This document shows positions 8,772-14,235 of a stretch of DNA of 27,079 bases, piece by piece. The stretch is from Dehalococcoidia bacterium (GTDB lineage Bacteria > Chloroflexota > Dehalococcoidia > JAZGDP01), in contig JAZGDP010000093.1 in assembly GCA_036477885.1 (NCBI GenBank), positions 1-27,079 on the forward strand, read 5' to 3'. Position numbers and translations under genes: made by a program. Every line of letters starts with the position of its first letter. The stretch's first letter is position 1. The notes beneath the pieces were generated by a model. It ran no database searches, had not been told where the DNA came from, and saw only the letters and a program-made list of their open reading frames with translations.

Positions 8772-9668
8772 CTAGGAAAAGATATCCCCGTACTTGATCC
8801 AATAATAGGCTATATAGGCCCCTGCTCCCACCAAGAACAGGGCGCTTATAGTGTGGACATGGGGCATCAAACCCTTGAGAGAGCGGGCCACCGCCCCTCG
8901 GAACAGGGCCGCTCCTACGGTAACGGCGATTAAGATAACCCCCATCCCCATGGAGTAGCTGATAAACTGAGCGAAGGAGTCGGCGAGCCCCTGGGTGGCA
9001 ATGGCGCTACCGACCACCACGAGAAAGATGGGTAAAGTGCAGCTCAGGGAGCCCACTGCATACGCTATGCCAAAGAGGAATACGTTGCGCAGGTTGCGCT
9101 GGGGGGTAATTGTCACCCGGCTGGCCGCCATGATACCCAAGGGTTTGTGAGTAGCAAACAGCCACAAACCCACCAGGGCCATAGCTATCCCTATGATAAG
9201 CCCTCCGATGGGGAAGGCACTAATTAGCCAGTTGCCCCCCAGGGAGATGATATATCCCACCAGGGAGAAAATGGCGATAAACCCTGTCGTGGCCACTAAG
9301 GCCAGAACAAGGGCACGGAAGAGACGAACAGGAGCTGGCGACTGGTAGAATCCCTCCTCCTGGGTGCCGAGATTATAGGCTACATAGGAAGGGAGCATGA
9401 AGAAGCCGCAGGGATTAACGCTGGCCACCATGCCGGCGCCGAAAGCGTAGCCGAAAGGCAAAGCCTCGGAGAGGCTAGCGAGGCCTCCCTCGGCGTCGCT
9501 GCGCACCGAAAGCAGGGCCGCCATGGCCGCCACTACCCCGCCGATGACGGCAATGAAAATACCCAGCCTGATGACTGACTGCTTTCGCGATACCCCGTTT
9601 AACGGTGAGCCTTGAATGGAAGCGCCCTCTCTACTATTGCCCTTGGCTATTCTGAAAGCCAGTTTCAT
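8772..9668 (-). CDS. ccdA: Cytochrome c biogenesis CcdA / DsbD-beta family membrane electron transporter
   Basis: Multiple hydrophobic helices; the two redox Cys lie in VNPCGFFMLPSY and SLSCTLPIF. Confidence 0.85.
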   Translation of the reverse strand: MKLAFRIAKGNSREGASIQGSPLNGVSRKQSVIRLGIFIAVIGGVVAAMAALLSVRSDAEGGLASLSEALPFGYAFGAGMVASVNPCGFFMLPSYVAYNLGTQEEGFYQSPAPVRLFRALVLALVATTGFIAIFSLVGYIISLGGNWLISAFPIGGLIIGIAMALVGLWLFATHKPLGIMAASRVTITPQRNLRNVFLFGIAYAVGSLSCTLPIFLVVVGSAIATQGLADSFAQFISYSMGMGVILIAVTVGAALFRGAVARSLKGLMPHVHTISALFLVGAGAYIAYYWIKYGDIFS

Positions 9669-9701: not shown

Positions 9702-10370
9702 TTATTCTTCGCTTACCGTTCCCAGGGCCTCAAGGAGCCTCTCCTCGATCTCCTTTTCCCCCATTTTCCCAATTCGCTTGTCCCGAATTATCCCATCTCG
9801 ATCGAGGAAATAAGTGGTAGGAAGAGCAGTAAGAGAGTAAGCCCGGGATACCAAGGCCTCCCCATCCAGCAACACAGTGTAACTCATGCCTGTTCTAGCT
9901 ACATAACGTGCTACAGGCTCCCGATTCTCCAGCAAGTCGACCCCTAAGAACTCCACGCCCTGGCTGTTGTATTTCTGGTACACCGCCTCCAGGTCAGGGA
10001 TCTCCGCCCTACATGGAGGGCACCAGGTGGCCCAGAAGTTGATGACCACCGCCTTTCCTCGGAGGTCGGCCAGGGAGACCTCATTTCCCTCTAGGTCGCT
10101 AAGGGTAAAGAGGGGTGCGGGAAAACCCACCTTTGGAGCGGGTGACAGCTCCCCCTCCAATGTTATGTTCACCGCTCCGGTAGCGCTAAGGTCACCACCT
10201 CGGATGTCCCCAGCGCTAGGAGTTACCAAAGAGTTATCTGAACTCCGGCTAACGATGATAGCCCAACTTACAAGGGCGATGAAACCCAAAAGACCCGTTA
10301 CAGCTAATATTGTAGGCCATCGCCTAAAGAAAGGGTCTTTTATTTTCTCTACATGGGTTGGGTTATCCAT
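9702..10370 (-). CDS. Membrane-anchored TlpA/ResA thiol-disulfide oxidoreductase
   Basis: N-terminal TM helix, NFWATWCPPC and ALPTTYFLDRDG. Confidence 0.92.
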   Translation of the reverse strand: MDNPTHVEKIKDPFFRRWPTILAVTGLLGFIALVSWAIIVSRSSDNSLVTPSAGDIRGGDLSATGAVNITLEGELSPAPKVGFPAPLFTLSDLEGNEVSLADLRGKAVVINFWATWCPPCRAEIPDLEAVYQKYNSQGVEFLGVDLLENREPVARYVARTGMSYTVLLDGEALVSRAYSLTALPTTYFLDRDGIIRDKRIGKMGEKEIEERLLEALGTVSEE

Positions 10371-10438
10371 GCTTTACCCTTGATTCGGCTCCCCCCTACT
10401 TTCCCTAAGCATTGCAAGCGGATTACTAGTATATCTTA

Positions 10439-10990
10439 TCACAAAACTCTCTCTACTTCCCTCTTCAGGGTGTCGTAGGAAGTAGCCCCATTGTCGCGAT
10501 ACACAATCTTTCCCTCTCTGTCTATTATGACCGTTGTGCCGAGGGCAGTTATGTTATACGTCTTGGTAACAAATCCGTTGGTGTCCTGGCCCCAGATGAC
10601 CTCCCCTGCGTCCACACTATTCCAGAAAACCTTCCAGGTCGATAGCGAGTAAGAGGGAAGTAAGTTGATGGCCACCACCTGCACCCCTTTATCGGCGAAC
10701 TCGGCATGAATCCTGCCCAGCGCTGGAGCCTCCAGCGCACAGGTGGGTCAACCAGGGAAGGAGAAGTATAACACCGTGACCTTCCCTAGCTGCTGGGCCA
10801 ATTGAAAGTCTCCGTTTAAGGTTGGTACTGTGAAATCGGACGCCAGGGGTCCACGGGGTTTCTCAATAGAGATATCGTTGCCTTCCCCAGAGGTTAGCTG
10901 CCAAGTGGCAACAGCGGCAATCACAGCCATCAATATCAACAGCGACCCAGCAGATAAAAACAGGAGGCTCTTTCTCCCTTGAATCGTCAC
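10439..10990 (-). CDS. Membrane-anchored TlpA/redoxin-family selenoprotein (U-P-T-C), 183 aa
   Basis: ORFs 10748-10990 and 10439-10684 are in one frame joined by TGA at 10748-10750, reading LYFSFPG-U-PTCALEAPAL. The TGA sits at the first position of the redoxin CxxC and is followed by a hairpin. Confidence 0.85.
10720..10738 (-). promoter_or_regulatory. Candidate bacterial SECIS element
   Basis: GCGCTGGA-GGC-TCCAGCGC is a perfect 8-bp stem whose loop starts 18 nt after the TGA; a lower stem CCTG/CAGG is possible. Confidence 0.7.
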
Positions 10991-10999
10991 TCCTACCCC

Positions 11000-11494
11000 C
11001 TATTCAGCCGTTATTCCACCGAGAAGTGCCCCGGCGCCGTGGAAATTCTTTCCCCCTTCCATCATCAAGGCCTGAAACTCGGTGTATTGGAAGGGGGTGG
11101 ATTCATCGCCCTGATCGGGCAGGAGTAAAGAGGCCGCTGATATATACCTCATTATAGCTATCTTAAAGGACTCATGAGCCTCGGTCACCTCAGAAGGCAC
11201 CGGTTCCAACCCCTCAACCCTTTCCAGTTGCTTCTCCAAGTCCTTGAGGACTAGGCGGGTATCTGCCTCAAACTCCGAGCTTAACCGATCGTCCTGACTG
11301 ATAGACACAGCCAGAAAACCGAGGATGCGAGTATCGTTCACCAGGCTTAGGGTGACCTGGTTGAATACATCTATGTACTGGTCTGTGGAGACCCTAGGTG
11401 TGATCGGGGTGGGGGTGGCTTCAGTAGCCCTATTAAGACACGCCGCAGCTATAAGAGACACAGCCACAACTAAAAGCAAAAGGCCCTTCATCAT
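11000..11494 (-). CDS. Hypothetical lipoprotein
   Basis: Basic N-terminus, hydrophobic core, IAAA-C lipobox, then a Thr/Pro-rich linker (TEATPTPITP). Confidence 0.7.
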   Translation of the reverse strand: MMKGLLLLVVAVSLIAAACLNRATEATPTPITPRVSTDQYIDVFNQVTLSLVNDTRILGFLAVSISQDDRLSSEFEADTRLVLKDLEKQLERVEGLEPVPSEVTEAHESFKIAIMRYISAASLLLPDQGDESTPFQYTEFQALMMEGGKNFHGAGALLGGITAE

Positions 11495-11529: not shown

Positions 11530-11691
11530 TTAGCCCTCGTCTTCTCGGCCCCCGCTTTTCAGTTGCCCCTCTATGACTTCCCTTGGCTCAGGGAGTTCCT
11601 CTTTCTCTCCACCTTTGAACCTCTTGGCCAGGAAAACTATACCGAGAACTGGCGCAAGACAACATGCAGCCACCAATAAGATAAATGGCAT
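11530..11691 (-). CDS. 53-aa single-TM microprotein with vicinal Cys-Cys (MerT/MerF-like motif)
   Basis: MPFILLVAACCLAPVLGIVFLAKRFKGGEKEELPEPREVIEGQLKSGGREDEG; SD AAGGGG upstream; starts 18 bp after the merA stop; below the length of any ORF in the track. Confidence 0.7.
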   Translation of the reverse strand: MPFILLVAACCLAPVLGIVFLAKRFKGGEKEELPEPREVIEGQLKSGGREDEG

Positions 11692-11709: not shown

Positions 11710-13146
11710 CTATTCTATGCAACAGGTCATCACCGAGATATCTCGGGTGAAGGCCTGGGCCGCCAGCTTTATCCCCTCGCTCAGGGTGGGATAGACGTGC
11801 ACCGTATCTATGATGTCGTCAACTGTTAGCTTGAATTTCACCGCTAATGTGGCCTCGTGGATGAGGTCGGCGGCGTGGGGAGCTACTATGTGCATCCCCA
11901 GGATCTGCGAGCTCTGGGGGTGGATCACCATCTTTATCACCCCTCGAGTCTCACCAATAACCATGGCCTTAGGGACTCTGGACACAGGCACTACACGACA
12001 GGCGCAGGCGTTGAAGCGCCGCATCTCCTCCTCCTCGGTTATGCCCACGCTAGCCACCTGGGGGTTGGTGAAGACGGCGTGGGGCACCTCGTCATAGTTA
12101 ATGGACCGCTCTGAACCGGCTAAGGCGTTCTCGGCCGCAAGCGCGCCCTCCTTGGCGGCGACGGTCTCCAGCAAGGCATTCCCCACACAATCCCCGGCGG
12201 CGTAGATATCAGGGGTGTCGGTCTGATAGTATTGGTCTACCTTGATGAACCCACCCTTATGGGTCTGTACACCCGATTTATCCAGGGCCAAGTCTTCGGT
12301 GTTGGCCTTGACCCCGGCGGCCAGGAGTAGCTCCTGGGCCTTCAACACCTCCTCATCGGTGCCGAAGGAGTGCTTTCTCAGGCCAGGCTGGCTTTTGCGG
12401 ATGGACACCACCTTCTCCTTGCCCTCTTGGGCGACTCTTTTCAACGTCACCCCGACTCGGAAGGAGATGCCCTCCTCTTCCAGGCAACGCTGTAGCTCCT
12501 GGGCCACCTCCGGCTCCTCTCTGGGCAATATCTGGTCCATGGCCTCCAGCACGGTGACCCTGGTGCCGAAGTGGGCGAACATCTGGGCGAACTCCAAGCC
12601 TAGGGGCCCCGCACCGATGACTATCATGGACTCTGGCAGCTCCTGGAGCTCCATGGCAGTAACATTGCTCAGCCAGGAGATGGTGTCCATCCCCGGGATA
12701 GGAAGGGGCTTGGTGGAGGAGCCGGTGGCGATGAGGAGCTTTTCTCCCTCATAGGTCTGCCCATCGACATCGACCTGGGTAGGCGAGACGAACTTAGCGC
12801 GGCCGTCGAGATAGGTAACCTCCTTCAGGCCCTCCACCACGTTTATGTAGTTGCTCTGCCGTGCCGTGGCAACCAACTCATCCTTCTGCTGGATAGCCAC
12901 TGCGAAGTCAAATCTAGGTCTGTGGCCGTTAGCCAGGGCCTTGAACCGGGGCGGGTCGGGGTAGAATAGCTCGTCGCCTACCGTAAGAAGATGCTTGCTG
13001 GGCATACAGCCCACGTTGACGCACGTGCCACCAATAGGAAGTCCACTATTGATCATTAGGGCCGACTTTCCCAGGTCCGATGCCTTGGTAGCGGCAGCGA
13101 AGGCCGCCGCCCCACCACCCACAATAACAAGATCGAATTTATCCAT
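11710..13146 (-). CDS. merA: Mercuric reductase-like flavoprotein disulfide reductase without an N-terminal NmerA domain
   Basis: [27 protein letters not shown] and C-terminal [19 protein letters not shown]. Start placed at ATG 13146 after GGGAGG. Confidence 0.85.
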
Positions 13147-13261
13147 TACTTCTTTACCTCCCAAGATTAGTTTGATTTGCTGTCGAAAAATCCCTTATAA
13201 TCCCACACCTCGAAAGCCCTAGCCGCAGCAACCTGAGTTCAAATGCCTGTACAGGGTTTCA

Positions 13262-13807
13262 TTAGCCTAGCAACGGCTTTAATTCCTCCACCAGCTTCTC
13301 CCCCGAGAACACTACCGGATACCCCCACCCCACCAAAGGCTCGGGGACCTTATCCCATTTAGCCTGGCCTCCAAAGAGCAAATAGACATCCCAAATCACC
13401 TCATCTTGGAATGGCCTACCTAAGAACTGCTCCACCTCCTCAGAGGAGCCAGCAAATTTAGCAGCGTCACCCTCCCTCCAGGAGGGAAGGACCTTCTCCT
13501 TGAACCATCGTGCCAACTCCCGTTTCCCATCCCAGAAGTGGGAAACTCGAGGGTCGTCCAGAAGCTTCTGGGCCTCGGGCACCTTTTCCCGGGAATCGCC
13601 GGGCATCATAGGCAGCCAAACCGTATAAACGGAGAGCTTGGAGCGGCTGTTCTCTCCCAGGACCTTCTCCTGCACCCAACGGGCGCCGTCAGCACAGTAA
13701 CCTCAAGTTGGAGATAGGAAAAGGAGGAGACGCGGTACGCCGCGGTCGTCGTTAAAGCGAGCCTTCAAGGTATCGTGGGCAGCCTGCTGGACTAAATCAT
13801 CTTCCAT
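13262..13807 (-). CDS. Cytoplasmic thioredoxin-like selenoprotein (U-G-Y-C), 181 aa
   Basis: Frame is open from ATG 13807: MEDDLVQQAAHDTLKARFNDDRGVPRLLLFLSPT-U(TGA 13703-13705)-GYCADGARWVQEKV, continuing into track ORF 13262-13675. Confidence 0.82.
13670..13697 (-). promoter_or_regulatory. Candidate bacterial SECIS element
   Basis: CTGTGCT-GACGG-CGC-CCGTT-G-GGTGCAG hairpin including G-U pairs; the loop starts 18 nt after the TGA. Confidence 0.6.
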
Positions 13808-13834
13808 GTTGCACCCAAATAAGAAGTAAGGATT

Positions 13835-14152
13835 CTACTTGATTATCTGACAAGCTAGGACCCGCTCGGCGTTGTCTGCGAGAATCTGCTGTCCCAGCTC
13901 CAATATGTCCTTCACCCTCGGGTCGGCTATGGTGTAGTAGACGTTTTTACCCTCCCGATAGGAAACGACATATCCGCACCATCGCAGGCATGCCAGGTGG
14001 CTGGAGACCCTTCCCTGGGGCGAACCCAGCAGCTCCACTAACTCACCAACGTTCTTGTCGCCCTCCAGAAGGAGCTGAAGGATTTTTACCCTGGTGGGGT
14101 CGCCCAGGCCTCGGAAGAATTTAGCGGTAACCCCTGCGGTAGTAGGGACCAA
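13835..14152 (-). CDS. ArsR/SmtB family metal-sensing repressor, CmtR-like
   Basis: FFRGLGDPTRVKIL, SSHLACLRWCGYV and C-terminal LACQ. The start codon is uncertain. Confidence 0.9.
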   Translation of the reverse strand: MVPTTAGVTAKFFRGLGDPTRVKILQLLLEGDKNVGELVELLGSPQGRVSSHLACLRWCGYVVSYREGKNVYYTIADPRVKDILELGQQILADNAERVLACQIIK

Positions 14153-14182: not shown

Positions 14183-14210
14183 ATATACTCCTATACGTTT
14201 ATAAGTATAT
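14183..14210. promoter_or_regulatory. Candidate ArsR operator, imperfect 14-14 palindrome
   Basis: ATATACTCCTATAC|GTTTATAAGTATAT, 11 of 14 positions complementary; overlaps the -10 box and probable start site. Confidence 0.65.
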
Positions 14211-14235
14211 TAACGCTGGAACTCCTTTTTGTCAA
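14207..14235 (-). promoter_or_regulatory. sigma70-type promoter of the arsR-merA operon
   Basis: TTGACA (14235-14230)-17 bp-TAATAT (14212-14207). Confidence 0.75.

Follow-up and report, generated by a model that had tools for sequence, protein, structure and literature searches.

Contig JAZGDP010000093.1 of a Dehalococcoidia bacterium (phylum Chloroflexota; assembly GCA_036477885.1), analyzed here over 27,079 nucleotides (nt) and referred to below as the window, carries a gene, here X, between arsR, which encodes a metalloregulator, and merA, which encodes a mercuric reductase. The reading frame of X contains a single in-frame TGA, and we conclude with high confidence, from sequence comparison, that X is a real selenoprotein in which this codon is genuinely decoded as selenocysteine (Sec). 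The best overall explanation of the locus, to which we give an even chance, is that X is a leaderless Sec protein that carries Hg(II) beside a MerA lacking the NmerA domain. That X works in mercury (soft-metal) handling of some kind is probable; its narrower role, as a carrier of Hg(II) to MerA that substitutes for NmerA, is proposed by analogy and remains tentative.

Reading frame, conservation, and decoding of X

The frame of X runs on the minus strand from an ATG at 13807-13805 to a TAA at 13264-13262, and its only in-frame TGA (13705-13703) is codon 35, within the peptide RLLLFLSPT-U-GY-C. The stop codon of arsR (TAG, 13837-13835) is in frame with this ATG at a distance of 27 nt on its upstream side, and the spacer between the two contains no start codon, so that neither an N-terminal extension nor a signal peptide is possible. 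In relatives from three metagenomes the spacer carries a 1-nt insertion, which demonstrates that it is non-coding. An earlier note on this DNA had described a frame open from ATG 13807 across one TGA, encoding a selenoprotein without a signal peptide. Its coordinates are borne out, the in-frame arsR stop fixes the leaderless start, and the selenoprotein assignment agrees with every computational criterion applied.

Gene calls made with translation table 11 yield just a 137-amino-acid (aa) open reading frame (ORF) from GTG 13675, and public protein collections (P0002; Atlas) contain exactly this fragment. The Atlas model of the fragment has a predicted local distance difference test score (pLDDT) of 0.70, poorer than that of the full-length model described below. 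X is one gene and not the 137-aa fragment.

An exhaustive phmmer search with X against 1.84 billion representative proteins returned 1,103 matches at E <= 1e-3, including 313 at E <= 1e-10, and the family has members in Acidobacteriota, Chloroflexota, Actinomycetota, Gemmatimonadota, and further phyla. Homologues align with X from end to end, and the 34 codons upstream of the TGA are kept in both sequence and length across phyla. Among the 115 homologues that span codon 35, this column holds Cys 108 times, Ser three times, Trp twice, and Gly and Lys once each; the second Cys of the motif (codon 38 column) is present in 114 of them. About 40 more homologues are 110- to 160-aa proteins that start just past the motif, the kind of product that gene callers make of a Sec gene.

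At the DNA level, we scanned GTDB, taking one genome per species and using a C-terminal pattern from a 10-sequence alignment that is blind to Sec versus Cys. The scan gave 67 loci, and the codon-35 column is TGA in 64 of 66 GTDB X-family genes and TGC in the other two. Eight genomes in an even sample of 200 from the phylum of the window carry the family, and eight of their nine matches have exactly one TGA. The metagenome contigs L009 and L010 have TGA at the same column, where read-through gives a 204-aa protein with the motif LLLSPT-U-PM-C. Contigs from four sediment metagenomes, belonging to four studies, cover codon 35 of X at 90 to 99% identity and keep the TGA; for metagenome run X2 we enumerated all 12 differences between contig and window, and none lies in the TGA of X. 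The earlier note had predicted that homologues would align across the TGA with Cys or TGA in that column, which is what we find. It had also named three contrary outcomes (homologues starting downstream of the TGA, a non-Cys residue in the column, and TGT or TGC in reads), and all three were resolved in favor of a selenoprotein.

The source genome encodes a complete set of Sec machinery, with scores above the respective cut-offs (in bits) for selB (358.6/242), selA (576.7/268), selD (374.8/125), and tRNA-Sec (61.7/47). SelA and SelB were also found in all five other X-carrier genomes. SelA is absent from the sole Cys-form genome examined, which is weak evidence given that this genome is a metagenome-assembled one. 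As a side observation, selD of the source genome (G000:C40:5444-6367, minus strand) itself has one in-frame TGA, so SelD is itself a selenoprotein.

Downstream of the UGA lies a short hairpin of the selenocysteine insertion sequence (SECIS) type (Table 1). Its stem starts 17 nt past the UGA, and the element spans positions +20 to +34 counted from the U of the UGA, with the GUU loop at +26 to +28. In the second pair of the stem (21-33), the third base of a Gly codon is matched with that of a Val codon, and across 66 genes this pair is C-G in 38, G-C in 13, U-A in 6, and U-G in 3, with 5 non-pairs. In a 53-sequence alignment, 95% of cells are paired and the covariation score exceeds that of all 500 shuffles, values to be read with the preselection of these sequences for at least five of six pairs. 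When the partners are slid by one to three columns, pairing falls from 95% to 31 to 58%. The remaining 13 of the 66 genes have other hairpins at the same location, and a natural variant, 13685 G>A, changes a C-G pair to U-G and so retains pairing. Folding the single X sequence of the window by minimum free energy gave no significant structure (z = +1.0), the hairpin being evident by cross-gene comparison, and a search of X against Rfam matched no known RNA family. The comparative data indicate that the hairpin at +20 to +34 is under selection, as expected of a SECIS element. Besides the preselection, the Cys-form control tempers this evidence: it comprises just three genes with DNA, one without the hairpin and two with a remnant. 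An alternative SECIS model with a 3-nt apical loop at +18 was also considered, and the comparative data favor +20 to +34 with its loop at +26 to +28.

Predicted fold, family signature, and topology

An AlphaFold2 run with the X-family alignment gave a model with a pLDDT of 89.4 and a predicted template modeling score of 0.86. In this model a strand (residues 26-31) leads into U35-x-x-C38, which sits at the N terminus of a helix (residues 36-51). X is thus modeled as a thioredoxin fold with active-site geometry, in agreement with the earlier note, which had recognized the layout of such an active site around UGYC. Foldseek matched the model to SdbA, Mycobacterium tuberculosis DsbE, ResA, TlpA, CcmG, Sco1, and GPx with a probability of 1.0, a template modeling score of about 0.5, and only 11 to 15% identity.

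At the sequence level X stands apart. Full-length X (P0001) has no family match in Pfam or NCBIfam at E <= 0.1, and the same holds for its relatives P0004 and P0005; the 43 aligned family members are unmatched in these databases except for two weak matches to PF13462. The earlier note had been unable to assign X to a named family, and these searches concur. In hhalign comparisons with two TlpA proteins, the family reached probabilities of 78% and 30% over just the strand1-CxxC-helix1-strand2 core, and a profile search of PDB sequences returned weak thioredoxin-fold matches (E = 0.04). No HMA domain (PF00403), the domain that would mark a MerP or NmerA homologue, was matched in X. A tblastn search with X against 72,556 plasmids gave zero matches.

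Several named families were considered as a home for X and rejected. At E <= 0.1 there is no hidden Markov model (HMM) match to the TlpA/Redoxin/AhpC-TSA models (PF08534, PF00578, and PF13905) or to the TUGYCR model NF053656 (cut-off, 100 bits), the latter in spite of the local T-U-G-Y-C string. Neither of the models that would make X DsbG-like (PF13462 and NF041057) matches P0001, and no model matches for SaoT (NF040730), HUIPC (NF047660), or a Redoxin selenoprotein.

The family has a signature of its own, consisting of F18, R26, S-P-T-U/C-x-x-C, G41, W64, D71, D93, W139-D140, and W151, together with a long insertion at residues 94-140. Codon 38 is invariant in both family alignments (A1 and A2). 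The x-x dipeptide of the U/CxxC motif is highly variable, with 27 kinds among 66 X-family genes, in apparent contrast to classical oxidoreductases, whose redox motifs are tuned. The tripeptide D85-P86-R87 precedes a strand at residues 88-92, and column 86, the presumed cis-Pro position, is outside the columns of alignment A1 that are at least 90% conserved.

Besides the window X, we identified three leaderless copies, L047_2660, L032_2818, and L034_2806, each of which adjoins an anchored paralogue. Paired family copies, typically one leaderless and one anchored, are seen at loci L032, L034, L047, L049, and L063, and a gene for a metallochaperone of the CopZ N-terminal type often lies between them.

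Mercury linkage and candidate roles of X

The neighbors of X in the window are listed in Table 1. On the minus strand we found no convincing terminator between arsR, X, and merA, and X is separated from arsR by 27 nt and from merA by about 97 nt; in the best explanation the three genes are co-transcribed and ArsR is a regulator responding to thiophilic metals. All MerA hallmarks sought in the window MerA were found, including CVNVGC and the C-terminal Cys pair (TCCIE). It has no NmerA domain, the match to PRK13748 starting at profile position 96. The earlier note had placed X between arsR and a merA without NmerA, and the HMM scores confirm both neighbors. The CcdA-like ORF has no Pfam or NCBIfam match of its own, and its Atlas features match PF02683 clusters; its product could be a reductant conduit or an Hg(II) importer. 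Between merA and the redoxin genes are ORFs for a 53-aa protein (11530-11691, minus strand) and a 164-aa putative lipoprotein (11000-11494, minus strand), neither with a family match.

Table 1. Gene X, its decoding elements, and neighboring features in the window
Feature	Position	Strand	Basis
Gene X, predicted leaderless thioredoxin-fold selenoprotein, 181 aa, SPT-U-GY-C, stop TAA	13262..13807	-	Read-through frame, full-length homologues, and AlphaFold2 model
UGA codon 35 of X, very probably read as Sec	13703..13705	-	Cys/TGA column in homologues; unchanged in independent metagenome contigs
Codon 38 of X (TGT), resolving/partner Cys of UxxC	13694..13696	-	Cys in 114/115 homologues; invariant in alignments A1 and A2
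SECIS-type hairpin GCGCCC-GUU-GGGUGC, 6 bp, 3-nt loop beginning with G	13672..13686	-	Family conservation and covariation
ArsR/SmtB-family metalloregulator, first gene of the operon	13835..14152	-	PF01022, 55.9 bits; NF033788, 84.3 bits (cut-off 55)
Promoter-like site TTGACA-17-TAATAT, upstream of arsR	14207..14235	-	Consensus scan only
Core-type mercuric reductase MerA, likely start ATG 13146	11710..13164	-	TIGR02053, 520.6 bits (cut-off 454.45)
Membrane-anchored Redoxin/TlpA-like protein, FPG-U-PT-C, second TGA gene of the operon	10436..10990	-	Read-through ORF; PF08534, 58.9 bits; ResA-like NCBIfam match
Membrane-anchored TlpA-like redoxin, WCPPC	9702..10370	-	PF00578, 105 bits; PF08534, 101 bits
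CcdA/DsbD_TM-like membrane protein, 298 aa, NPC... and SC... motifs	8772..9668	-	37% identity over 80% of the length to the CcdA of an S. aureus plasmid mer operon

To survey the neighborhood of the family, we clustered all ORFs flanking 66 X loci, using a distance of 4 kb. MerA, MerB, MerT, or DF-family/MerTP genes are found within this distance at 27 of the 66 loci, and some metal gene at 32. The recurrent neighbors include MerR-type regulators (14 loci), ArsR (12), MerT (PF02411; 11), CcdA-like proteins (10, with homologues directly downstream of X), MerA (9), MerB (PF03243; 8), and CopZ-N-terminal-type metallochaperones (NF047645; 7); DF-family/MerTP genes are also present. Three gene orders recur: MerR-MerT-X, in which X takes the merP position; ArsR-X-MerB; and MerB-ArsR-MerA-X-CcdA-like. 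The 10 loci with a CcdA-like gene 3' of X belong to Actinomycetota and Chloroflexota and have no merT. All five true MerAs that neighbor the family lack NmerA. X is also fused to mercury- and metal-related domains: the 419-aa protein P0080 reads MerT(13-70)-HMA(125-183)-X(256-349), the Cys-form L063:2579-3466 has the order signal-HMA-X, and P0007 combines an HMA domain with three X repeats. Taken together, these sequence comparisons establish a mercury linkage for the Sec-rich X subfamily.

Two further observations concern the neighbors of X. At the MerR-controlled locus L009, X is followed by a gene (L009:1671-2528) whose product combines a (seleno)protein domain of the DF family (NF049942, 110.6 bits) with a MerTP-like transporter. 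MerA-like flavoenzymes near X members at L024:6194-7564 and L041:202-1572 have no C-terminal Cys pair and are probably not mercuric reductases.

In the mechanism that we consider most likely, UGA codon 35 is decoded as Sec by SelB and tRNA-Sec with the help of the hairpin 17 nt downstream, giving a cytoplasmic 181-aa protein with a selenol-thiol pair, U35-x-x-C38. Hg(II) may then be bound by Sec35 and Cys38 in a Se-Hg-S complex, from which ligand exchange would transfer it to the two C-terminal Cys residues of MerA. Those family members that are exported would have a MerP-like role beside MerT or a CcdA-like membrane protein, with a supply of reductant. Extended to the whole SPT-U-x-x-C family, this would amount to a selenium-based Hg relay on both sides of the membrane, in which members outside the cytoplasm, whether exported or anchored, trap Hg(II) as Se-Hg-S, feed it to MerT or a CcdA-like protein, and replace MerP, and leaderless members such as the window X take it up within the cell and pass it on to the C-terminal cysteines of NmerA-less MerA; we consider this extension rather unlikely.

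A number of observations weigh against X as a mercury carrier. At about half of the Sec-form loci, no metal gene lies within 4 kb of X, other fusion partners of X include YceI and beta-lactamase/PDZ domains, and leaderless Cys-form relatives adjoin not mer genes but genes for phosphoenolpyruvate mutase/SnoaL, thioesterase, nonribosomal peptide synthetase, hydrolase/enoyl-CoA hydratase, and polyketide synthase. Nearly all X homologues have an N-terminal hydrophobic anchor, a signal peptide, or a lipobox. A maximum-likelihood tree, in which phyla are intermixed, does not resolve the position of the window X; it is closest to the L009 protein, which is anchored (51% identity), and does not group with the other leaderless copies, so that the leader must have been lost more than once. 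The window operon itself contains no merT, merP, or merB. In metagenome run X4, a 3.7-kb contig from an organism of 90 to 95% similarity joins arsR directly to merA, 38 unrelated bases replacing 624 bases that include X (window 13206-13831), and the same sample also contains an X-bearing contig at lower depth. The difference is a natural presence/absence polymorphism of X, and it implies that X is dispensable for that operon. Finally, MerP and NmerA resemble X in neither sequence nor fold, which makes the chaperone role one of analogy only. The suggestion in the earlier note of an Hg chaperone replacing NmerA is plausible but not established. The association of the family with mer genes, with HMA and MerT-HMA fusions, and with NmerA-less MerAs favors it; the role itself stays a matter of inference in view of the exported or membrane-anchored relatives, the non-mer contexts, and the arsR-merA unit without X.

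The main alternative, which we regard as unlikely though worth serious consideration, is that X is a thioredoxin-like electron carrier and not a metal carrier. It would reduce the CcdA-like protein (8772-9668), which keeps the two extracytoplasmic redoxins at 10990..10436 and 10370..9702 reduced, so that mercury resistance would rest on reduced envelope thiols and selenols; X itself could receive electrons from cellular thioredoxin reductase or from the MerA-type flavoenzyme, whose C-terminal Cys pair would act like that of high-molecular-weight thioredoxin reductases. The fold of X is nearest to TlpA-, ResA-, and CcmG-type reductases, and UxxC thioredoxin-fold selenoproteins are generally regarded as redox proteins (PMC13188914). 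The operon encodes one CcdA homologue together with two TlpA-like proteins; such a pathway requires a thioredoxin-like donor in the cytoplasm, and X is the sole cytoplasmic thioredoxin-fold protein of the operon. The CcdA-like gene directly 3' of X at 10 loci points the same way, but X is anchored or exported where it adjoins such a gene, which would make it an acceptor rather than a cytoplasmic donor. The varied non-metal contexts of leaderless Cys-form relatives are what would be expected of a general redox protein; the HMA and MerT fusions, however, point to direct metal traffic, and neither the x-x dipeptide nor the presumed cis-Pro column 86 (in A1) is conserved. Also against this alternative, the window MerA exceeds the curated MerA equivalog cut-off.

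It is improbable that X has no specific connection with mercury and is a selenoprotein of general stress or redox function, found here only because metal islands are mobile and gather redox genes. Such a protein would suit the roughly half of the family loci without a nearby metal gene, the YceI and beta-lactamase/PDZ fusions, the close relative with no X between arsR and merA, and the patchy distribution across the phylum of the window. However, a strict mer gene within 4 kb at 27 of 66 loci is far over chance for genes as rare as these, the three gene orders are conserved, the MerT-HMA-X fusion would be hard to account for, and X of the window is enclosed by arsR and merA in a single transcription unit, with short spacers and no terminator. 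We think it very improbable that the TGA is a true stop, whether in a broken gene or in one from which only the 137-aa ORF is made. That view can appeal to the table 11 calls, to the databases that hold the fragment, and to the lack of a known Rfam family at X. It is opposed by the conservation of the 34 upstream codons across phyla and a fixed TGA column, by the covariation of the hairpin, by the complete Sec machinery, and by the same TGA in independent assemblies; the truncated product would also miss strand 1 and the active site, and its model is the poorer one. A leaderless Sec protein carrying Hg(II) beside an NmerA-less MerA remains our preferred explanation.

Comparison with known systems

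All X-family proteins are named "hypothetical protein" in the sequence sources. If X is what we propose, a large and widespread family has been systematically misannotated, as two fragments or as a 110- to 140-aa "hypothetical protein." Its recognition would enlarge the prokaryotic selenoproteome, connect the use of selenium with the detoxification of mercury in soils and sediments, and offer a testable answer to how a MerA without NmerA acquires Hg(II). It would also be relevant to what the thioredoxin-like and CcdA genes in the mer operons of Gram-positive bacteria do, a long-standing puzzle. Should the two-sided relay be true as well, bacteria of soil and sediment phyla would routinely use Sec as a ligand in detoxifying mercury.

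Like X, the catalogued UxxC thioredoxin-fold selenoproteins have Sec in place of the first Cys of CxxC. The catalogued families comprise Sec-Trx, Prx-like, DsbG-like (NF041057), Redoxin (PF08534), SaoT (NF040730), HUIPC (NF047660), TUGYCR (NF053656), MerT selenoprotein, UxxU (NF041115), and DF (NF049942), several of which have a link with the handling of Hg or As (PMC13188914); the DsbG-like family is defined in PMC1088965 and PMC13188914. None of the selenoprotein-family domain models of the 2022 and 2026 inventories (PMC9312934 and PMC13188914), including the thiol-disulfide isomerase-like one, matches X. X is mentioned neither in a survey of mer gene diversity (PMC8261052) nor in the preprint by Haft on selenoproteins linked to metals. 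That predicted mercury proteins can contain selenium has precedents in the MerT selenoprotein, the UxxU metal-binding protein, HgcA/B, and the DF family. What is new here is the leaderless X form inside an arsR-merA unit.

The closest structural comparison is with the TlpA/ResA/CcmG/DsbE reductases and Sco proteins (Redoxin, AhpC-TSA, Thioredoxin_8, and SCO1-SenC families), which share with X a thioredoxin fold with C/UxxC at the start of helix 1. Like these proteins, most X members are anchored on the outer side of the membrane, and several of their genes adjoin a CcdA-like gene. X differs from them in its own signature, its insertion at residues 94-140, the lack of an HMM match, and the low identity, and the window copy is cytoplasmic.

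A related arrangement is found on Staphylococcus aureus plasmids (e.g., NZ_LR130516.1), where a bona fide mer operon, merR-TlpA-CcdA-merT-merA-merB, has, like that of the window, genes annotated for a thioredoxin-fold CxxC protein and a CcdA among its mer genes. The staphylococcal TlpA is an ordinary Cys protein of the TlpA family, remotely related to X. To our knowledge, the roles of the staphylococcal TlpA and CcdA ORFs are likewise untested.

MerP and NmerA (GMTCxxC) provide the proposed working analogy for X, that of a small protein whose two ligands bind a soft metal, placed outside beside MerT or inside beside MerA. Exported X takes the merP position, and leaderless X stands beside a MerA without NmerA. 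The scaffolds differ, a ferredoxin-like HMA fold in MerP and NmerA versus the predicted thioredoxin fold of X, and some proteins fuse X to HMA instead of replacing HMA with it.

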